Origin: Patescibacteria group bacterium
GTDB taxonomy: Bacteria; Patescibacteriota; Doudnabacteria; UBA920
Reading direction: 5' to 3'
DNA length: 64,000 nt
Assembly: GCA_036726225.1 (NCBI GenBank)
Contig: DAIMCS010000001.1
Coordinates: 188,885-252,884 of the forward strand
Below the pieces are notes generated by a model. That model saw only the letters and a program-made list of their open reading frames with translations. It was not told the origin of the DNA and did no database searches. Shown here in pieces: positions 5,310 to 57,143 of the stretch. The translations under genes and the position numbers were made by a program. Position 1 is the stretch's first letter. Every line of letters begins with the position of its first letter.

Positions 5310-6389
5310 TTAAAGATAGTTTTTAACGGCCCCAAAAACTACCTCTCCTCTATCTGTAATCGCGCTGATGTATTGATTGTTTTGCAGTTGCTTTCTAAAC
5401 TCGCCGCTTTCCAACTCCGTTTTTACTTCGTTGAACAAATTTTTTCCGCCCAGCAGAATTAATTTGCGCTCTACCAGGTAGTCCACGTTGTCTTCCTCCT
5501 GCCCGGGCAGGGTAAAAGTTATTAAAAGAGGCAGTCTCCACTGCAAAGATTCGGCAGTACTAAGCCCGCCCGGTTTGCCCACAAAAATGTCAGCAATTGA
5601 GTAAAGCTCGGCCATGGGAGAGTAGAAAGAAAGCGGGATTACGTTTTTATAGCCTAAGCTATGTATAGAATTAAAAAGCTGCTTATTTTTTCCACAGGCA
5701 AAAATTATTTTGGTATTGGGTAAATTTACCAATTTTTCTAAATCTTCCAGCTTAAAACCAATGCCCAAAGACCCTGTGCCTATTAGCACCACTTTTTCAT
5801 TTTGCGATATGCCCAATTTTTGCCTGACTAATGACGGATCAATTTCTAATTTTGGTTTAAGCGCCATGCCGCAAACAAAAATTTTGTCCGCTGGAAAACC
5901 GCGAGCCACTAATGCCTGTTTTTGCTCTTCAATATTGGCCAAATAAAAATCGGCTTGCTCGTAAAGCCAAAACGGATGCAAGTGGTAATCGCTAAAGCCT
6001 ATGCCAAAAGGTTTGGTGTAAAGTTTTTTACGTTTAAGATAAGCAATAACGCCGGAGGCGGCTGTTTGCACGCTAATTACCATATCGGGCTTAAAGTTGT
6101 TAATAAGATTTAACGCCTGCTTATGGTTAAAACTTGCAATAAAGAGCCTAAAGGGCATACCGGCCAAGTAACCCCATCTATATATCCAGCCCCACACAAA
6201 GGGTAAATGCTTGTTTATAAATTGGTGTATGACAAAAGTTGTGTGGGAAAATTTTCCTTCCTCAACTTTGCCAATATCTTCTAAGCGGACCTCAAAGCCG
6301 GCCCGGGCGAGATGCCAGCCAATATTCTCGGCCATGGTTTTGTGGCCCAGACCAACCGAAGTATGGAAAATTAAGATTTTTTTAGACAT
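5310..6389 (-). CDS. Glycosyltransferase, MGDG synthase/UgtP-like (GT28 family)
   Basis: 359 aa; N-terminal GxGH motif (HTSVGLGHKT), MurG/UgtP-like two-domain architecture. Confidence 0.55.
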   Translation of the reverse strand: MSKKILIFHTSVGLGHKTMAENIGWHLARAGFEVRLEDIGKVEEGKFSHTTFVIHQFINKHLPFVWGWIYRWGYLAGMPFRLFIASFNHKQALNLINNFKPDMVISVQTAASGVIAYLKRKKLYTKPFGIGFSDYHLHPFWLYEQADFYLANIEEQKQALVARGFPADKIFVCGMALKPKLEIDPSLVRQKLGISQNEKVVLIGTGSLGIGFKLEDLEKLVNLPNTKIIFACGKNKQLFNSIHSLGYKNVIPLSFYSPMAELYSIADIFVGKPGGLSTAESLQWRLPLLITFTLPGQEEDNVDYLVERKLILLGGKNLFNEVKTELESGEFRKQLQNNQYISAITDRGEVVFGAVKNYL

Positions 6390-7791
6390 CCCTAAAGTTT
6401 ACTGCTTTATTAAACTCCTTATTTGTAAGTAACTTTTTTCCCACAACCACATCGCGCAAAGTTTTTCCCGATGACACCGCTTCTTTTACCACCTGCTTCA
6501 TAGTCTCGTAACCGAATTTTGGCGTGAGTAGGGTTGCGTAGGCAGTGGATTTTTCCAAAAGTTCACGGCAGCGTTTTGGGTTGGCTTTGATGGTTTTGAT
6601 GCAGCGATCGGTAAAAATCTGTAAAACCTGCGAAGCCATTTTTATTGAATGGATGAGTTTGTCAGCCACAGGCGGAACCATAACAGCTAAATTTAACTGC
6701 GCGCCGTGAGCTGCGTGCTCTATAGTTAAATTATTTCCAGAAACTGTGTAATACAAAACATTTACTGTTTCAGGTAAAATTGGGTTTACTTTACCCGGCA
6801 TTATGGAAGAACCGTTTTGAAGTTCGGCTAAAGTAATTTCGCCAAATCCCCCTCGCGGGCCGCTCGACATAAGTCTCAAATCGGATGCGATCTTCGAGCA
6901 ATCCAAACATAGAGCAGTAATGGCTTGCGAAATTTGTAAAAAATCAGAGGAGCTGGAAGTGTGGGCAACAAAATTTTTAGCCGGTATAAAATTTTGTTTG
7001 GTAATTTTATTTAACTCTTTATACACACTCTTTATGTATCTAGGGCTCGCATTAACAGAATTACCCACCGCAGTTCCGCCTAGATGCAAGGTTAATGCGA
7101 GAGATTTTACCCGGGTGATTTCTTTTTGGTGACCACGGATAATTTCTGCGTAAGCGAAAAATTCTTCTCCCAAAGTAATTGGCACTGCGTCCTGCAAATG
7201 AGTTCGGGCTAATTTTAAAATATTTTTAAACTGTTTACCTTTGCTTTCCAGTGCAGCTGATAAATTTTCTAAAACTGATGATAATTGGTCAAGCAAATTT
7301 GCGGACGCAACCTTAATCGCAGTAGGGTTTACATCGTTTGTAGATTGGCTTCGGTTAACGTGGTCGTTAGCATTTACTACTTCACTCCCTCTCCCCTTGC
7401 GGGAGAGGGTTGGGGTGAGGGGTTTATTTAATATCTCATTCGCCCGACTCGCTATCACTTCATTGACGTTCATGTGAATGGACGTGCCGGCTCCACCCAT
7501 AAGTGAAGGCAAGGGAAATTGATAATCAAAAAATTTCCTTTTTACCCTCTCCCTTTGGGAGAGGGTGGCCGAAGGCCGGGTGAGGGTTCCATGCTCTATT
7601 ATTTCATCCGCCGCCTTTACAATTGCATTCTTTACGTTGCGGTTAAAATTTCCCGCGGTAAAATTTGCAATCGCTGCCGCTTTTTTTATTTGCGCCAGCG
7701 CAATAATAAATTCCCTATGAAACGGGCTCGTATCAAAGGGAAAATTTTTTAATGCTTTTTGTGTTTGCTCGCCAAAATACTTTTTTTGCAT
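6382..7791 (-). CDS. Aspartate ammonia-lyase / class II fumarase family lyase, carrying two in-frame palindromic-element insertions
   Basis: 469 aa; signature GSSIMPGKVNP; insertions at 7385-7422 and 7545-7587 encode low-complexity PTLSRKGRGSE-type segments. Confidence 0.7.
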   Translation of the reverse strand: MQKKYFGEQTQKALKNFPFDTSPFHREFIIALAQIKKAAAIANFTAGNFNRNVKNAIVKAADEIIEHGTLTRPSATLSQRERVKRKFFDYQFPLPSLMGGAGTSIHMNVNEVIASRANEILNKPLTPTLSRKGRGSEVVNANDHVNRSQSTNDVNPTAIKVASANLLDQLSSVLENLSAALESKGKQFKNILKLARTHLQDAVPITLGEEFFAYAEIIRGHQKEITRVKSLALTLHLGGTAVGNSVNASPRYIKSVYKELNKITKQNFIPAKNFVAHTSSSSDFLQISQAITALCLDCSKIASDLRLMSSGPRGGFGEITLAELQNGSSIMPGKVNPILPETVNVLYYTVSGNNLTIEHAAHGAQLNLAVMVPPVADKLIHSIKMASQVLQIFTDRCIKTIKANPKRCRELLEKSTAYATLLTPKFGYETMKQVVKEAVSSGKTLRDVVVGKKLLTNKEFNKAVNFRDV

Positions 7792-8557: not shown

Positions 8558-9211
8558 TTAAATAAATTTTAAAAGTTTGTTAATTGTAATCTTTCTAAAA
8601 TCTTTTATTACCAAATTTGCATGCGAGAGTTCTTTGGGATGGTGAGAAGTTGCAACAGCAATTACTTTCATTTTAGCTCTTTGCCCGGCTTTTATGCCGT
8701 TTAAGCTGTCTTCGAACACTACGCATTTTTTCGGACTGACTTTAAGTTTTTTAGCAGCCTTTAAAAAAATTTCCGGGTCAGGTTTTCCGTGTTTTACGCC
8801 TTTTGAATCAACAATAGTATGAAAATATTTTCTTACCCCCGTGCGGCCTAAAACAAAATTCACATTCACAGTTGGCGCAGCAGTTGCCAGCGCAATTTTT
8901 ACTTTATGCTGTTTTAAACTTTCTAAAAATTCTTTCAAACCACTAAGCGGTTTAATATACGGAGCGTAAATTTTGCGGTAATAGGCTTCTCTTTTTATAT
9001 CTAACTTTTCTATTTCTTTATTTGTCAGCCCCTGTCCCAGCATTTGCCGAATAGTTTCGCGCGCAAATTTACCCAAAAATTTTGTCCTGACAGTTTTAGA
9101 CGAAAGCTTAATGCCAAACCTTTTAGCAAACCTAATCCAATTCAACACGTGATACTTAGTATTGTTGACTATAACCCCGTCCATGTCAAAAATTACAGCA
9201 AAATTTTTCAT
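8558..9211 (-). CDS. HAD-IA family hydrolase (beta-phosphoglucomutase-like)
   Basis: Motif I FDMDGV, motif IV FEDSLNGIKAG; start trimmed to internal Met (MKNFAVIFDMDG) because the upstream 10 codons of the track ORF run into a terminal inverted repeat. Confidence 0.75.
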   Translation of the reverse strand: MKNFAVIFDMDGVIVNNTKYHVLNWIRFAKRFGIKLSSKTVRTKFLGKFARETIRQMLGQGLTNKEIEKLDIKREAYYRKIYAPYIKPLSGLKEFLESLKQHKVKIALATAAPTVNVNFVLGRTGVRKYFHTIVDSKGVKHGKPDPEIFLKAAKKLKVSPKKCVVFEDSLNGIKAGQRAKMKVIAVATSHHPKELSHANLVIKDFRKITINKLLKFI

Positions 9212-9307
9212 GTTTGATATATAGGTTCCTAGGGTTCCCAAAGATCAGGGATTTTTGGGACAAAAGAGCAGCGTCCAAAGCGAACGAAGTGAGGACGATT
9301 GACCCGT

Positions 9308-9397
9308 GGCGGAGAGGGAGGGATTCGAACCCTCGATGCCCTTGCGGACATAGCAGTTTTCGAGACTGCCCGATTCAACCACTCTCGCACCTCTCCG
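9308..9397 (-). tRNA. tRNA-Ser(CGA)
   Basis: rc sequence GGAGAGGTGCGAGAGTGG...CTCGAAA...long variable arm...GGTTCGAATCCCTCCCTCTCCGCCA; anticodon loop CTCGAAA. Confidence 0.85.
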
Positions 9398-9660
9398 CGT
9401 CGCAACTTGCTACGAGCCATCGGAATTAACTAAAGTTAATTCCTCAAACTCTCCGCAGTTGCTCCTTATCCCAAAAATCCGTGCTCGTCCAGACAAAGCC
9501 CTGGACTGCGCTCCTAATTTTTGGGAACCCTAAGTGGCTCCCCTTATTATAAATTAAAAACCGCCTATTCTCAATACGGAACTCTTGATAGATCACCCTA
9601 ATATATGTTATATTCAGCCAATCTAAATAGGGTACCAACCACACACAAGGGAGGAAAACA

Positions 9661-10452
9661 ATGAGAAAGACATTGGCTTTCATGACAATTATCATGGCGG
9701 CCTTAAGCAGTGGATGCGTAAAAAAAGAAGGTTTCAAAACCGTTACACAAGCGCCGTTATACGAACCCACGCCAAGCTACGCGGATCTCACTCGGTTGGA
9801 GAAGCTCGGCGTACCAGACAACTGCCGGGACCACCTCAAAAAGCCGGCCAAACAGATCCCTGAATTTTTCAACGATGAACGTGAAGCTTTCCGCTGCGGC
9901 GGTATGTATACCGACAAGCCGTGGCTTTATGGAACACTCATGAAAACGGTGGAAAAAAAAGGATGGAATGGCACCGGAGGGTACTGGGCACTTGTATTTT
10001 ACTACCAGTACGAAAAAGAACCCTGGGCGCCGCAGATGTTTTTAAAAGCCGTAAAGCTAGACCCTGTCGGTGTATTCCATTTCTTCACTGAGCGCATCAG
10101 TTATAACGGCAAGTACGGAAATAGCCACCCGCCTGCTTGGTACGAAAGCCGCATCCCAGGCCTAATGTCCTTGCTTAAACAGTCCATTGAAACTTCAGTT
10201 GAAAAGGGGCACGGACTGGACGCACTGAAATTTCTAAACAAGGAAGTTGATTTCCCTGACAGAGAAGCCCTGCTTGAAAGCCTGATTCCTGAACTTGTCT
10301 TTCGGGAAAATATCCGCTCTATAAACCTCGTCGACATTGCCAGGCAACTACGGGAAATGAACGAGCCGTATGCCAAGTCGGCGTTAGACAGGCTAAAAGC
10401 CGATGTGCATGGAAACTACGCCTTTTTCATACGCGAATCCCCCAACTTTTAG
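9661..10452 (+). CDS. Predicted lipoprotein, hypothetical; markedly GC-rich relative to surroundings
   Basis: 263 aa; signal peptide with lipobox-like ALSSGC; RBS AAGGGAGG upstream; intrinsic terminator downstream. Confidence 0.6.
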   Translation: MRKTLAFMTIIMAALSSGCVKKEGFKTVTQAPLYEPTPSYADLTRLEKLGVPDNCRDHLKKPAKQIPEFFNDEREAFRCGGMYTDKPWLYGTLMKTVEKKGWNGTGGYWALVFYYQYEKEPWAPQMFLKAVKLDPVGVFHFFTERISYNGKYGNSHPPAWYESRIPGLMSLLKQSIETSVEKGHGLDALKFLNKEVDFPDREALLESLIPELVFRENIRSINLVDIARQLREMNEPYAKSALDRLKADVHGNYAFFIRESPNF

Positions 10453-10475: not shown

Positions 10476-10509
10476 CCGCCGAGATCCGTTGATCTCGGCG
10501 GTTTTTTTA
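10476..10509 (+). terminator. Rho-independent terminator
   Basis: ccgccgagatccgttgatctcggcgg hairpin followed by T7. Confidence 0.8.
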
Positions 10510-11205
10510 AACTGATAAATTTTGGCAAAAACTTAAACGGTGAATAGCGGAAAGGCCGTTTTGCAAAATGAGTTTTCGATGCTGCTGTGTAGCATAACCT
10601 TTGTGCTGTTTGAGATTGTAGATTGGATAAGTTTCATGCAACTTTTGCATTAAACTATCTCTATAAACTTTTGCGATAATTGATGCAGAGGCGATTGAAA
10701 GAATTTTATTGTCACCGTCTACAACTGCTTCTTGTTCAATTGTTAAGCCGGGAATTTTAAACTTGCCGTCAACAACTACCATGACTTTGTCATTCCCGCG
10801 AAAGCGGGAATCTTTTTTAAGATCCCCGATCGGGTCGGGGATGACATAAAAAGATAGCAGATTCTCAACGGCTTTTCTCATTGCAAGCAAGCTTGCGTTG
10901 TGAATATTTATTCTGTCAATCTCTTCAGGTGAAACTTCCGCAATGCTCCAGGCAATTGCATTCTCTTTTATAATTGGCGCTAATTCTTCTCTTTTTTCAG
11001 CCGAAAGCAGTTTGCTGTCCTTAATTCCACAAGACTTTATAACTTTATAACTTTCTACTTTTAACTTGTCGTTTGCATCCGATATAGGCAAAATCACCGC
11101 GGATGCGACGACAGGCCCGGCCAAACATCCCCTGCCGACTTCGTCACAGCCGATGATGTGGGAAAAACCTTGTGATATTTTTTTGTTTTCGTATTTGTTG
11201 TTCAT
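10507..11205 (-). CDS. rnhB: Ribonuclease HII with in-frame palindromic-element insertion
   Basis: 232 aa; GCDEVGRGCLAGPVV and HKGYATQQH motifs; 10789-10845 palindromic element encodes ...DPIGDLKKDSRFRGND... Confidence 0.85.
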   Translation of the reverse strand: MNNKYENKKISQGFSHIIGCDEVGRGCLAGPVVASAVILPISDANDKLKVESYKVIKSCGIKDSKLLSAEKREELAPIIKENAIAWSIAEVSPEEIDRINIHNASLLAMRKAVENLLSFYVIPDPIGDLKKDSRFRGNDKVMVVVDGKFKIPGLTIEQEAVVDGDNKILSIASASIIAKVYRDSLMQKLHETYPIYNLKQHKGYATQQHRKLILQNGLSAIHRLSFCQNLSV

Positions 11206-14879: not shown

Positions 14880-14957
14880 AAACGTATAATACCATTGCTC
14901 AAAGCAAATTAAAAGGCTATAATATATTGGATTTTTGACCCGAAATAAACATAAGGG

Positions 14958-15073
14958 CTCCCAAAAATACTGATGAGCATTCACAAAGGTATTTTTGGGA
15001 AAGACGAGCGCCCGCGGAGAGCGAAAGTCCCGATTTTTAAATCGGGACGTGAGCTCGGAGCAAGGCGCGAGGA
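14958..15073 (+). ncRNA. Structured tRNA-leader element (copy A) immediately upstream of tRNA-Pro
   Basis: cccaaaaat-hairpin-atttttggg module, then GGAGAGCGAAAGTCCCGAT-loop-ATCGGGAC-GTGAGCTCGGA enclosed by outer stem gcgcc/ggcgc. Confidence 0.5.
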
Positions 15074-16046: not shown

Positions 16047-16206
16047 CCCGTTAGAAGTCTTAATTTTTTTTACGAAAGATTAAAATTTTATCAAAGTCTA
16101 TTTTATTTGGACGCCGCTAGTGGTTTGTAACAAACTTCTAACGGGATCCATGGTGTAATTATACCAAATAAGTTTTTATTTTTGCTCCCCGCCCGCCTGA
16201 CTTGTC

Positions 16207-16281: not shown

Positions 16282-16478
16282 GTCAGGCGAGTCGGGCGGG
16301 TATCCACTCCGACGTTCAACAAAGTTGAAGTCGGAGCCCCGACCGCTTGCGCGTCGGGGTTGAGCCTGCCTGCCAGCAGGCAGGCTACGAAGGCCAAAGA
16401 CACCAAAAAATTATACCATAAAAAACGCCCCTTATGATAGAATCATTAGGGGCCGATTTTTTGAGATTTTGACACTAT

Positions 16479-21077: not shown

Positions 21078-21151
21078 TGGTGGACCTAGGGAGAATCGAA
21101 CTCCCGCCTCAGCAATGCGAATGCCGCGTCATACCACTTGACTATAGGCCC
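21078..21151 (-). tRNA. tRNA-Ala(CGC)
   Basis: rc GGGCCTATAGTCAAGTGG...TTCGCAT loop...GAGTTCGATTCTCCCTAGGTCCACCA; G3:U70. Confidence 0.8.
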
Positions 21152-37123: not shown

Positions 37124-37280
37124 TATAGTATCCAGGCAAGTTATTCTCGGTCTGGCTTCAGTTACAATTTAAACTTGAGCAATGCTACAAAATAGCAGGT
37201 TTAAATTGAGAGGAACATTTTACGGAGCAGCTGAAATTTTGATGCAGTCAAAATTTAACGCGCGGAGAAAAGTGCGACGA

Positions 37281-37357
37281 GGACGATTAGCTCAGTTGGT
37301 TAGAGCGCCTCGTTTACACCGAGGAGGCCAAAGGTTCGAATCCTTTATCGTCCACCA
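37281..37357 (+). tRNA. tRNA-Val(TAC)
   Basis: GGACGATTAGCTCAGTTGGTTAGAGCG CCTCG TTTACAC CGAGG ... GGTTCGAATCC ... ATCGTCCACCA. Confidence 0.85.
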
Positions 37358-37504
37358 TGAACCATTCGCTCCGCTCAGGTTCATGGCACGCCATAAGCGT
37401 GACATGGAAAATAGAGCGAGTGTTCATGCCCTGACACCCGAACGAAGCGAGTGGTTCAGGGCACGGGTCAACCACCTCTCATTACGTTCAAGGTGCTGCC
37501 CCTT

Positions 37505-37685
37505 ATCCCAAAAATGCCTCCGGCATTTTCGGGAACCCTCAATGAAATCCAAACCGCAAAAACGAGTAGCGCAGCTCCGACGTTTCAGTCGGAGCGAGCA
37601 CGCGTTTTTGTGGAAGAGGAGTTCGTGATGGAGAGCGAGAATCCCGATATTAATCGGGATGAAAGCTCGGAAACACGAACGACTA
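37505..37685 (+). ncRNA. Structured tRNA-leader element (copy B) upstream of tRNA-Phe
   Basis: cccaaaaat hairpin, internal caaaaacg-hairpin-cgtttttg module, GGAGAGCGAGAATCCCGAT-ATTA-ATCGGGATGAAAGCTCGGA core, outer stem gttcgtg/cacgaac. Confidence 0.55.
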
Positions 37686-37760
37686 GCCTCGGTAGCTCAT
37701 TGGTAGAGCGCTGCCCTGAAGAGGCAGGCGTAGTCAGTTCGATTCTGACCCGAGGCACCA
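37686..37760 (+). tRNA. tRNA-Phe(GAA)
   Basis: GCCTCGGTAGCTCATTGGTAGAGCG CTGCC CTGAAGA GGCAG ... GTTCGATTC ... CCGAGGCACCA. Confidence 0.85.
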
Positions 37761-37837
37761 TCGGCCCATTTATCCTTACGGCTTACGTGTGCAAAAAAAT
37801 ATTTTGCCCACTTCAGCCTTCAGGATAATGTGCCTCT

Positions 37838-38016
37838 TTCCCAAAAATGCTAATAGCATTTTTGGGAACCCTCAATGAAATCCAAACCGCAAAAACGAGT
37901 AGCGCAGCTCCGACGTTTCAGTCGGAGCGAGCACGCGTTTTTGTGGAAGAGGAACAACTGCGGAGGGCGAGAGTCCCGATTGAAGATCGGGACGAAAGCC
38001 CGGAGCAAGTTGTGAC
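37838..38016 (+). ncRNA. Structured tRNA-leader element (copy C) upstream of tRNA-Gly; shares an identical approx. 85-nt segment with copy B
   Basis: ...GGAGGGCGAGAGTCCCGAT-TGAAG-ATCGGGACGAAAGCCCGGA core, outer stem acaact/agttgt. Confidence 0.55.
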
Positions 38017-38090
38017 GCGGCTATGGTTCAATGGTAGAACTTCTCCTTGCCATGGAGAGGATAGGGGTTCGATTCCCCTTAGCCGCTCCA
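38017..38090 (+). tRNA. tRNA-Gly(GCC)
   Basis: GCGGCTATGGTTCAATGGTAGAAC TCTCC TTGCCAT GGAGA ... GGTTCGATTCCCC TTAGCCGCTCCA. Confidence 0.85.
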
Positions 38091-38282
38091 AAAGAAAACG
38101 CCTCACCCCTTGTGGGTGGGGCGGTTTCTTTTTTAAGAAGGCACGAGGGGAATCGAACGGGTTGAAGTGAGGCCAGACCGCTTCAGCAGAAGCGGTAGCA
38201 GCCGAGCGATCGGGAATGCGAGCTGGCGCAGCATTCCCGCAACCCCGGGCTACGAGCGAGCCTGCAGGCGAGCGAGGACGAA

Positions 38283-38301
38283 ATTCCCCTTAGCCGCTCC
38301 A
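38283..38301 (+). other. 19-nt direct repeat of tRNA-Gly 3' end (att-like scar or tRNA fragment)
   Basis: attccccttagccgctcca identical to 38072-38090; preceded by a leader-like remnant (cgagcgatcgggaatgcgagc) and followed by a terminator hairpin. Confidence 0.6.
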
Positions 38302-38507
38302 AAGAAAAAACTATCACTTTATGTGGTAGTTTTTTCTTTGGTTAGGATAAGCTTGGGACCTTTTCCCTCGAGCGCAGCGAGACCCCGACCTTCTCGTCGG
38401 GGTTAGCCGATCCTTAAAACCCAAAAAGCAAAGTCGAAGGACCCACAAAAAGAGTTTGACTAAGGATGATTTTTTATATAAATTTAGCCAAAAGGAGGAG
38501 TTTACAA

Positions 38508-40835: not shown

Positions 40836-40884
40836 ATTTTAAAACCCCCTCTGCAAAGAGGGGGTTTTGATTTGCATTAATAGG

Positions 40885-41053
40885 GCTCCCAAAAATGCAA
40901 TGCATTTTTGGGAAAGAGGGGCAGCATCCCAAACGAAGTGAGTCCCGACTTGTCGAGACGAACACAGTGCGGGATGAATGACCCGTGGAGGGGTTTTAGT
41001 TTGGCTATTGAATTAATAGTGCTTTTTGATTAAAATGTATTAGTTATACAAAT
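40885..41053 (+). ncRNA. Structured tRNA-leader element (variant D) upstream of tRNA-Cys
   Basis: gggctcccaaaaatgcaatgcatttttgggaaagagg...gaagtgagtcccgac...cgggatgaatgacccgtgg. Confidence 0.45.
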
Positions 41054-41130: not shown

Positions 41131-41204
41131 CGGGTCAATCGTCCTTCACTCATTCATTTTTGACTGAAGTCAAAAAATTCATTATGTTCAGGACGTTGCC
41201 CCTT

Positions 41205-41396
41205 CATCCCAAAAACGCGTGCTCTCCCGACAAAAGTCGGGATGCGCTCCACGTTTTTGGGAGGTCTATATAACAAATCCTCAGCTCAAAAAAGGGCTCT
41301 CAAAAATGCAATGCATTTTTGGGAAAGAGGAGTTCGTGACGCAGAGCGTAAATTCCGACGTTAGTCGGAATGCAAGCTCACAGGCACGAACGACGA
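41205..41396 (+). ncRNA. Structured tRNA-leader element (copy E, two cccaaaaa/tttttggg modules) upstream of tRNA-Leu(TAA)
   Basis: ...GCAGAGCGTAAATTCCGAC-GTTA-GTCGGAATGCAAGCTCACAGG core with compensatory changes in the hairpin relative to copies A-C; outer stem gttcgtg/cacgaac. Confidence 0.55.
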
Positions 41397-55970: not shown

Positions 55971-57143
55971 CTATTTGATTTTTAAAAATCTTTTACCCAA
56001 ACGAAACAAATCGCCGGAAGCAATTTTTACACGGGCATTCTCATCGGTAATTTTTTGCTGATTATGGTTGACCGCGCCTTCTTTAATTTTCCGCCTGGCT
56101 TCCGATTTAGACGAAGCCAGCTTGCCTTCAACTAAAATATCCAGCAAAATATATTCGCCGTCTTTCTTGCTTAAAACCACATCCGGCTCTATTTCTGAAG
56201 ATGAATTTTTCCCAAATTTTTTCCCAAAATTTTCTTTAGCTTGGGCTGCTATTTTGCCGCCATAATACAGCTCTGTAATTTTTTGGGCCAAAACTAATTT
56301 TTGGTCGCGTGGGTTTGCGTTCGAACGCAATATGCCGTCTATTTCCCCGAGTGGCACGCGGGTAGCCAAAATAAAATACTTTTTTATTAAGTCATCGCTA
56401 ATGGACATAACCTTGCCAAACATATCGTTGGGCTCATCTGTCACATTAATAACATTGCCCCAGGAAGAGGACATTTTTCGGCCGTCCGTGCCTTCTAAAA
56501 TCCCCATCATCAAAATATCTTGGGGTTCTTGGTTGTACAGGGGTTGTATGCGCCTGCCGGCCAAAAGATTAAACCTTTGGTCCGTACCGCCTAATTCTAA
56601 ATCAGCCTTAACAGCAACCGAATCGTAACCTTGAAGTAAAGGATACATAGCTTCGTGAAGCGATACCCTTTGCCCGGCCTTCATACGCCTGGCAATAATT
56701 TCACGTGATTCCATTTCATGCAGCCCAAACAGGTTAGCGAGCTTGGCGAGTTCAAAAAATCCTAACTTATTCAGCCATTTGGAATTATAATGAACCTCGG
56801 TCTTTTTCTTGTCCAAAATTTTGTAGGCCTGCTCAAAATATGTCTTCATATTTGCTTTAACTTCTGCTTCTGTAAGCATAGGACGCTCTGAATCTTTGTC
56901 TGAAGTATCACCCACAAGGCCTGTGGAGTCACCAACAATAAACACCGCCTGGTGACCGGCGTCCTGAAAAGCGCGCAATTTTAAAAGCAAAACCGCCCGG
57001 CCAATGTGGATGTTTTGGGAGGTGGGGTCTATGCCCAGTTTTACTCTAAGTTTCTTCTTTGAAACCAGCTGCCGCTCTAAATGATGGTAATCTATAACCT
57101 CTTCCACCCCGCGGCCCAAAAGTTCTGCAATAGGATTATTCAT
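55971..57143 (-). CDS. tyrS: Tyrosine--tRNA ligase
   Basis: 390 aa; class I; KMSSS motif; C-terminal S4 domain. Confidence 0.85.
   Translation of the reverse strand: MNNPIAELLGRGVEEVIDYHHLERQLVSKKKLRVKLGIDPTSQNIHIGRAVLLLKLRAFQDAGHQAVFIVGDSTGLVGDTSDKDSERPMLTEAEVKANMKTYFEQAYKILDKKKTEVHYNSKWLNKLGFFELAKLANLFGLHEMESREIIARRMKAGQRVSLHEAMYPLLQGYDSVAVKADLELGGTDQRFNLLAGRRIQPLYNQEPQDILMMGILEGTDGRKMSSSWGNVINVTDEPNDMFGKVMSISDDLIKKYFILATRVPLGEIDGILRSNANPRDQKLVLAQKITELYYGGKIAAQAKENFGKKFGKNSSSEIEPDVVLSKKDGEYILLDILVEGKLASSKSEARRKIKEGAVNHNQQKITDENARVKIASGDLFRLGKRFLKIK

Follow-up and report, generated by a model that had tools for sequence, protein, structure and literature searches.

The subject of this report is the tRNA-Ser(CGA) gene, and above all the DNA on either side of it, in a stretch of 64,000 nt from a member of the Doudnabacteria (contig DAIMCS010000001.1). 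We refer to this whole stretch as the window, and number positions from its first letter. The gene stands between the two arms of a perfect 15-bp inverted repeat, an arrangement that an earlier note on this DNA took for a mobile cassette, that is, a tRNA carried between terminal inverted repeats (TIRs). The view that we have come to favor is another one: the flanks are probably parts of the precursor tRNA, assembled from structured modules that recur beside other tRNA genes. The features of the locus are listed below in the direction of the tRNA; numbers that begin with L designate the other contigs with which it was compared.

9546-9574, minus strand: predicted sigma-70-type promoter, TTGAGA-17-TATAAT, with 11 of 12 consensus positions, outside the right arm of the repeat.
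9520-9534, minus strand: right arm of the 15-bp repeat, comprising the 5' flank AGGGTT and the 5' strand of hairpin HP1.
9469-9526, minus strand: leader hairpin HP1, UCCCAAAAAU...AUUUUUGGGA, with a GC-rich hairpin inside it.
9397-9467, minus strand: leader hairpin HP2 (P1-P2-P3), with purine-rich internal loops; matched by covariance model R1 at 69.6 bits, E 1.5e-15.
9307-9396, minus strand: tRNA-Ser(CGA) with an encoded CCA, detected by ARAGORN and Rfam; 90% identical to its orthologues in L020 and L021.
9266-9306, minus strand: trailer hairpin T1, CGGGUCAAUCGUCC...GGACGCUGCUC, beginning 1 nt past the CCA.
9229-9260, minus strand: trailer hairpin HP1' (UCCCAAAAAUCCCUGAUCUUUGGGA) and 3' flank ACCCUAG; the HP1 module inverted, which holds the left arm (9229-9243).
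8558-9211, minus strand: HAD-family phosphatase gene, its ATG 17 nt past the trailer.

The two arms, ctagggttcccaaag (9229-9243) and tttgggaaccctaag (9520-9534), are exact reverse complements at 15 of 15 bp, as the earlier note had said, and the elements to which they belong are related and face inward, toward the tRNA. In a repeat search the inverted repeat widens to 20 nt at 90% identity (9230-9249 and 9513-9532), and a second pair of 21 nt at 86% lies nested within it (9243-9263 and 9466-9486). The exact 13-mer TAGGGTTCCCAAA occurs in the 64 kb only at the two arm sites. By our estimate, a perfect 15-bp inverted pair no more than 300 bp apart would arise by chance about 0.02 times per 64 kb; the repeat is far above chance. 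The leader consists, in order, of the 5' flank AGGGUU, HP1 (9526-9469), a purine linker AAGGAG, and HP2 (9467-9397), the 71 nt of which end in a 5-nt tail, GACGC, that reaches position -1 of the tRNA. In the trailer, T1 is followed by the HP1' hairpin itself (9260-9236) and then by ACCCUAG. The apparent TIR thus exists because the leader begins with HP1 and the trailer ends with the same module, inverted. A leader-like element had been proposed for each side, and this is half right: the HP1 module and AAGAG/AAGGAG are present on both sides, but HP2 is found upstream only—model R1 matches the locus at 9397-9467 (minus) and nowhere else—and the downstream side has a hairpin of its own, T1.

Because its near-consensus promoter lies outside the right arm, the unit is probably a single pre-tRNA transcript, one that includes the HAD gene. 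The -10 box of this promoter, and AGCCACTT downstream of it, are conserved in L020, L021 and L038. A consensus scan predicted no terminator between the trailer and the HAD ATG; its sole terminator-like match, a weak one, falls within T1 (9272-9286, minus). Judged by this arrangement, tRNA-Ser is probably co-transcribed with the downstream HAD gene, and since it directly precedes that gene in relatives also (L040/L041), a mixed tRNA-mRNA transcript seems likely. Folding of the unit (9226-9538, minus) gives minimum free energy (MFE) and centroid structures of -146 kcal/mol (z = -9) in which leader and trailer are predicted to pair with each other, forming a helix of ~35 bp that encloses the tRNA.

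The modules are not peculiar to tRNA-Ser. HP1 is a palindromic hairpin of the form YCCCAAAAAT...ATTTTTGGGR, and ATTTTTGGGA/TCCCAAAAAT occurs 11 times in the window where 0.9 occurrences are expected. A hairpin search of the 64 kb found ten HP1-type hairpins in both orientations, every one of them within ~200 nt of a tRNA gene, and none away from tRNAs. The tRNAs concerned are Ser, Pro, Val, Phe, Gly, Cys and Leu-TAA. HP1+HP2 leaders precede six of the window's 12 tRNAs (Ser, Pro, Val, Phe, Gly and Leu-TAA), and T1+HP1' trailers follow four (Ser, Val, Phe and Cys). The modules are independent of one another: Pro, Gly and Leu-TAA have a leader without a trailer, Cys a trailer without a leader. 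In the Val-Phe-Gly and Cys-Leu clusters, every spacer is a trailer followed by a leader. The copies outside the Ser locus are as follows.

14953-15073, plus strand: HP1+HP2 leader of tRNA-Pro(CGG); no trailer, and a terminator after the tRNA.
37165-37280, plus strand: leader of tRNA-Val, with an HP1 of differing, fully compensated sequence (AAUUUAAAC/GGUUUAAAUU), then HP2.
37464-37540, plus strand: T1+HP1' trailer after tRNA-Val.
37554-37685, plus strand: HP1+HP2 leader of tRNA-Phe.
37761-37873, plus strand: T1+HP1' trailer of tRNA-Phe.
37887-38016, plus strand: HP1+HP2 leader of tRNA-Gly.
40880-40991, minus strand: inverted copy of the tRNA-Cys 3' end (last 6 nt, CCTCCA) and its trailer.
41131-41265, plus strand: T1+HP1' trailer of tRNA-Cys.
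41291-41396, plus strand: HP1+HP2 leader of tRNA-Leu(TAA).

The copy at 40880-40991 sits between a terminator and the predicted tRNA-Cys promoter, so that tRNA-Cys, too, is bracketed by an inverted repeat. HP1 has the leader-type orientation in L028 and the trailer-type orientation in the Val-Phe and Phe-Gly spacers of the window. The Phe and Gly leaders do not differ in their HP1 parts. Within HP1, the distance between half-sites ranges from 3 to 38 nt.

The strongest signs of function come from HP2. When 12 copies are aligned they form a three-helix hairpin of 21 pairs, 16 of which show compensatory changes. Of the aligned cells, 94.8% are paired, vs 76.6% in shuffled alignments and 24–40% when the structure is slid along the alignment, and none of 500 shuffles reached the observed pairing score. 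The most conserved positions are not in the stems but in the unpaired, purine-rich loops (GGA/GGA and GARA/GAAA) and in the tail, GACGA; such a pattern is typical of functional RNAs. Model R1 has six matches in the 64 kb, all accounted for by these leaders, and outside the window it matches L021, L022/L036, L027, L028 (at two sites), L035, L037 and L039, other Candidatus Doudnabacteria contigs among them. All matches have the orientation of the tRNA and end at its 5' end, with model coordinates no more than 2 nt from the +1 assigned by ARAGORN, and seven different tRNA species are preceded in this way. Since its stems covary, its purine loops are conserved, and its position and orientation with respect to +1 are fixed, HP2 behaves as one would expect of a functional RNA that acts in cis. 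The taxonomic range of the motif is taken only from a narrow pattern scan of metagenome contigs, which returned 11 loci. Seven of these (eight matches) end 2–3 nt 5' of a tRNA—Ser-GCT, Ser-TGA, Ser-GGA, Ser-CGA, Glu or Pro—and the other four are chance matches in GC-rich coding DNA. Pattern scans of viral contigs gave no match.

In eight distinct leader copies the base stem of HP1 is paired throughout, with compensatory changes in seven of 10 pairs, four G.U pairs and no A.C on the tRNA-sense strand, in strands that were picked from MFE folds, a choice that biases the count toward pairing. The HP1 sequences of Val and of L035-Glu are wholly different, and still complementary.

Neither flank belongs to a known family: Rfam 15, applied at gathering thresholds over the whole window and at E <= 10 over 9150-9700 and 37150-38350, returned only tRNAs and chance-level matches, and a search of the literature found no description of tRNA leaders of this kind. 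Several more familiar elements were considered and rejected. For a self-cleaving ribozyme in the flanks (hepatitis delta virus-like, hatchet or similar) there was no Rfam signal, and no P1 partner for CGGGUCAA could be seen by eye. A kink-turn in HP2 was discounted, again by eye, the loops being symmetric and lacking a 3-nt bulge followed by GA. A leader peptide after the Shine–Dalgarno-like AAGAGGAG would have a start codon only in the Phe and Leu copies, and no reading frame is conserved. As to boxA-like antitermination signals, UGCUCUUUU of the Ser trailer resembles boxA, and the other trailers read UGCCCCUU instead. Finally, a putative closing helix of the trailer, GGGU/ACCC, shows no covariation in the Phe and Cys copies.

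Comparison with related genomes separates the history of the tRNA from that of its flanks. The relatives identified by Ddl, at 73–77% identity, are metagenome-assembled genomes of Candidatus Doudnabacteria; relatives at 80–95%, which could have dated the gain at the Ser locus, are absent from the protein database, in which the HAD homologue next in line has 62% identity. Synteny of tRNA-Ser(CGA) extends to L020-L024 and, beside the HAD gene, to L038-L041. In all, eight related species keep it in place, seven of them without either flank (L020, L021, L022, L023, L024, L038 and L040/L041), and one, L039, with the leader only. Where they can be aligned, the flank-less loci have a common promoter context, TTATAATA..AGCCACTT. 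In L039 an HP1+HP2 leader is combined with an unrelated trailer, and there is no inverted repeat. The leader of tRNA-Pro, likewise, is present in the window, L021 and L022 and absent from L023, L024 and L020, and the promoter region is common to all the species. The flanks are clean indels of ~125–135 nt, with promoter and tRNA conserved on either side. Because relatives retain the tRNA and the promoter, yet mostly without the flanks, tRNA-Ser must be regarded as the resident and the flanks as the variable part.

The three Pro leaders look orthologous, to judge by their common promoter context and the similar HP1 loops of the window and L021. Many substitutions separate them, and all of their stems stay paired nonetheless, a sign that selection has long acted on their structure and that some lineages later lost the leader. 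The leader of tRNA-Ser in the window, on the other hand, may have been copied there later from another tRNA; it has a long insert in HP1 in common with the Phe and Gly leaders.

Within the strain itself nothing varies. Same-strain contigs from several samples that span 9200-9660 are 100% identical, with no presence/absence variation, and one partial contig (L019) has a single mismatch. Short contigs of the strain (L005, L007-L010, L016-L019) often end in the tRNA-Ser leader or in the tRNA region, which suggests repeat-induced breaks in assembly. Orientation with respect to Ddl differs between species: tRNA-Ser is inverted in L022 and L024, tRNA-Pro is inverted and relocated in L020, and tRNA-Ala(CGC) differs between L020 and L022. 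Surrounding gene order is largely kept when L020-L024 are compared with the window.

Taken together, we consider it fairly probable that pre-tRNAs here carry leader and trailer as external spacers, transcribed, structured and built of modules, and that HP2 functions in cis, as RNA, at the RNase P site. By sequence comparison the spacer family appears lineage-specific and undescribed, and its modules separable and reusable. Transcription of the flanks, their processing, and the involvement of RNase III or RNase P are what we infer from this. The locus would form one transcription unit, running from the promoter through HP1, AAGGAG and HP2, which would lie at the RNase P site, to tRNA-Ser(CGA), T1, inverted HP1 and the HAD-gene operon. 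The most likely role of the modules would be to direct or protect the endonucleolytic maturation of the pre-tRNA; they might also separate the tRNA from adjacent tRNAs or from an mRNA downstream, and keep exonucleases out. The two HP1 modules of the Ser unit could pair with each other instead of locally, and so form the ~35-bp helix around the tRNA. Over evolution, the modules would be gained, lost, duplicated and inverted at tRNA loci while the tRNA stays.

Several observations weigh against this interpretation, in addition to the bias in the HP1 count. The long-range helix is predicted for Ser only; the Phe unit, which has both modules, folds into local hairpins, and since it does so, and orthologues lack the helix, the helix of the Ser unit is possibly an incidental by-product. 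Related species evidently do without the flanks. In the Ser and Val trailers, HP1' has an A.C mismatch in the tRNA sense, which is G.U on the opposite strand. HP1 occurs in both orientations, and the trailer copy at 40880-40991 is probably not transcribed with its tRNA. Dispensability, the A.C mismatches, the two orientations and the copy at 40880-40991 are all explained more easily by copying at the level of DNA than by function at the level of RNA.

One such explanation is that the flanking modules, and above all the HP1 units with their AGGGYT flank, are selfish DNA repeats, non-autonomous and akin to REP/REPIN or MITE (miniature inverted-repeat transposable element) sequences, which insert or are copied beside tRNA genes in either orientation; tRNA-Ser would by chance have one on each side, and the hairpins would be kept for the mobility machinery, not for the pre-tRNA. 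We think this unlikely, but of the alternatives it survives the best. Presence and absence do vary at the orthologous tRNA-Ser and tRNA-Pro loci, with sharp boundaries; HP1 does occur both ways round; the inverted trailer copy, in a spot that is probably untranscribed, carries with it 6 nt of the tRNA-Cys 3' end; two trailer hairpins have mismatches in the tRNA sense; and the identity of the Phe and Gly HP1 parts bespeaks recent copying. Other, similar hairpins, GC-rich and of the form CCCGAY...RTCGGG, also occur within open reading frames (ORFs). Against this view, all ten HP1 copies of the 64 kb lie next to tRNAs. HP2 is strictly oriented and ends at +1 of seven tRNA species, which is hard to reconcile with a mechanism of insertion into DNA, and the orthologous Pro leaders have kept every stem paired through many substitutions. 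Nor is there a target-site duplication, a transposase or RAYT-like gene within 10 kb, or polymorphism among the same-strain contigs. Both views could be partly true, with HP2 functional and HP1 copied about.

It is a good deal less probable that the palindromes act as DNA, either as regulator sites for tRNA transcription or as sites for a recombinase that inverts tRNA segments. A conserved AGGGYTCCC lies close to the predicted transcription start, and in leader-only units it has no partner with which to pair; tRNA-Ser, tRNA-Pro and tRNA-Ala(CGC) flip between species in relation to Ddl; and inverted repeats surround both tRNA-Ser and tRNA-Cys. The half-sites of HP1, however, are 3–38 nt apart, a misfit for a dimeric DNA-binding site, and its stem extensions covary, with G.U tolerated; the Val and L035-Glu copies are entirely different in sequence and complementary nonetheless. 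The species with flipped tRNAs, moreover, are without the repeats, and no recombinase gene was called within 10 kb of the locus in either direction.

Weakest is the proposal that the whole of 9229-9534 is a MITE-like or cassette-like mobile unit carrying tRNA-Ser(CGA) between TIRs, which, its perfect 15-bp repeat notwithstanding, we find scarcely credible and regard as already contradicted by the orthologous loci: tRNA-Ser(CGA) is syntenic there, and 90% identical in L020 and L021 with the same promoter context and no flanks; the leader of L039 has no inverted trailer; leader and trailer are independent at other tRNAs; and the promoter lies outside the repeat. The arms are bordered by ...ATATAGGTTC| and |TGGCTCCCCT, with no in-register direct repeat of at least 2 bp, and hence no target-site duplication. 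No second TIR-bounded copy exists in the window or the fetched loci, and BLAST with 9200-9660 matched the same-strain locus or the tRNA alone. Sites empty of the whole unit were not found among the eight related species, all of which retain the tRNA. The genes called in the 10 kb to each side include no transposase or integrase. Two opposed hairpin modules account for the 'TIR', an outcome that the earlier note had said would refute its reading provided that presence and absence did not vary; they do vary, though not of the unit but of its flanks. The claim of a tRNA-carrying transposon can be set aside, and the idea of mobility survives only for the modules themselves.

One circumstance does favor cassettes in general: relatives have a promoter and tRNA-Ala(CGC) between 16-bp inverted repeats, and tRNA cassettes may therefore move in this clade. 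In L020 (2912-3112), L022 (about 1720-1960) and L036 (about 1-230), a tRNA-Ala(CGC) with its own TACAAT box lies between TCACCCCGTCACTAAA and TTTAGTGACGGGGCGA, and this insert interrupts another tRNA-Ala(CGC) gene, of the resident type, at its anticodon loop. The interrupted gene can still fold into a cloverleaf, its anticodon stem lengthened by the repeat helix; 21078-21151 of the window is the uninterrupted counterpart. From its sequence, the nested gene has the look of a genuine tRNA cassette with TIRs at its ends, unless it is an intervening sequence that bears a tRNA.

Other tRNA genes of the window have peculiarities of their own. tRNA-Arg(CCT) is abutted by an unrelated 15-nt leader-trailer stem, CCCGCCCGACUCGCCUGAC / GUCAGGCGGGCGGGG (16187-16206 and 16282-16300), with three GC-rich hairpins upstream (leader hairpins to about 16400; fold z = -6.6); this structured flank is absent from the orthologous loci of L020, L022 and L023. 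At 38070-38303 the last 19–20 nt of tRNA-Gly (ATTCCCCTTAGCCGCTCCA) recur ~210 bp downstream, each copy followed by a terminator: an att-like direct repeat around a tiny insert, as is left by integration at a T-loop or 3' end. Comparable 3'-end duplications follow tRNA-Glu in L035 and tRNA-Ser(GCT) in L028. ARAGORN's 'tRNA-His(atg)' at 56337-56424, without support from the Rfam tRNA model and in coding-like surroundings, is probably a false positive.

The GC-rich CCCGAY...RTCGGG hairpins occur both in ORFs and in spacers (10825-10839, 7300-7600, 23421, 38384 and 53939). In the RNase HII ORF (10507-11205) and the fumarase-like ORF (6382-7791) they coincide with odd, in-frame peptide inserts (IPDPIGDLKKDSRFRGNDK and PLTPTLSRKGRGSE) and with locally raised GC. 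Possibly they form a second hairpin-repeat family, one that tolerates insertion into genes. The lipoprotein gene reported next to the tRNA-Ser locus (9661-10452) is indeed GC-rich, at 0.45–0.50 vs 0.36–0.41 in its neighbors, and its product has a signal-peptide-like N-terminus, ...LSSGC; the ORF has no Pfam match. This putative gene is missing at this position in all of the related loci: in L020 and L038 no gene intervenes between RNase HII and tRNA-Ser, and in L040 a PadR-like gene comes after RNase HII. In the loci compared, the stretch from RNase HII to tRNA-Ser appears to be a variable spot.

If the flanks are, as we believe, structured pre-tRNA spacers, they have some general interest. 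In bacteria a tRNA leader is as a rule short, lacks structure and is not conserved. That covarying hairpins should adjoin many tRNAs, at the RNase P site on one side and the CCA end on the other, in a lineage of reduced genomes and, by published account, divergent RNase P RNA, points to an unrecognized layer of tRNA maturation or control in bacteria of the candidate phyla radiation (CPR). Gained here and lost there at orthologous loci, the hairpins also raise the question of how modules of structured RNA pass from gene to gene. There are practical aspects, too: the modules appear to break metagenome assemblies at tRNA loci, and they could be added to RNA-family libraries, which would improve the annotation of CPR genomes. 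More tentatively—we would not put it at quite an even chance—HP2, HP1 and the T1 trailer together make up a class of pre-tRNA element, acting in cis and not described before, that Doudnabacteria and perhaps other CPR bacteria possess and that has spread by copying between tRNA loci. HP2 may serve as a recognition, processing or regulatory signal; it might, for instance, make up for the divergence of RNase P RNA that has been reported from CPR genomes (PMC8172020). Alternatively, it may direct an RNase III-type excision of tRNAs from mixed tRNA-mRNA transcripts.

Among known systems, the Ser unit most resembles the leader-trailer stalks of rRNA, the RNase III substrates that flank 16S and 23S. 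In both, complementary arms surround a stable RNA within one transcript (a predicted one, here), and the ~35-bp MFE helix of the Ser unit, also a prediction, encloses the mature RNA as a stalk does. Unlike the stalks, the Ser unit encloses a single tRNA, and each of its arms can fold alone. The long-range pairing, moreover, is not conserved: Phe folds locally, L039 has no matching trailer, and most of the tRNAs that bear leaders are trailerless. The RNase III processing hairpins of phage T7, of the R1.1 type, consist of a stem, an internal loop and another stem. HP2 is similar in being a coaxial hairpin of ~21 bp with conserved internal loops at the boundary of an RNA product, and dissimilar in sequence; its loops are symmetric and purine-rich (GGA/GGA and GARA/GAAA). 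If the folding models are a guide, the Ser unit would work most like rRNA stalks and RNase III processing hairpins, although it fails the test of helix conservation. A third precedent is the 3' external transcribed spacer (ETS) of the E. coli glyW-cysT-leuZ precursor, which acts as a sponge for small RNAs. This, too, is a tRNA-precursor spacer with a function of its own, such as we propose here, but it is unrelated in sequence and structure, and the spacers described here are a repeated family that precedes many tRNAs.

Mobile elements furnish the other set of comparisons. Bacterial MITEs that are transcribed and structured include the Correia/NEMIS elements of Neisseria, ERIC, RUP and BOX. 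Like them, the Ser unit is small and non-coding, has terminal inverted repeats and RNA hairpins, and varies in presence between related genomes. Unlike them, it has no target-site duplication, its two 'ends' are independent, and a resident, syntenic tRNA lies between; the modules, furthermore, are confined to the flanks of tRNAs, with the orientation and distance of HP2 fixed. HP1 on its own is reminiscent of REP, BIME and REPIN sequences, being a short, repeated, palindromic hairpin that is found in both orientations and sometimes in inverted pairs. It differs from these in that it is not dispersed, 10 of 10 copies being beside tRNAs; inspection of 20 kb showed no RAYT-type gene, and HP2 and T1 have no REP counterpart. 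Viewed from both sides, the family is akin to structured external transcribed spacers or to tRNA-associated repeats.

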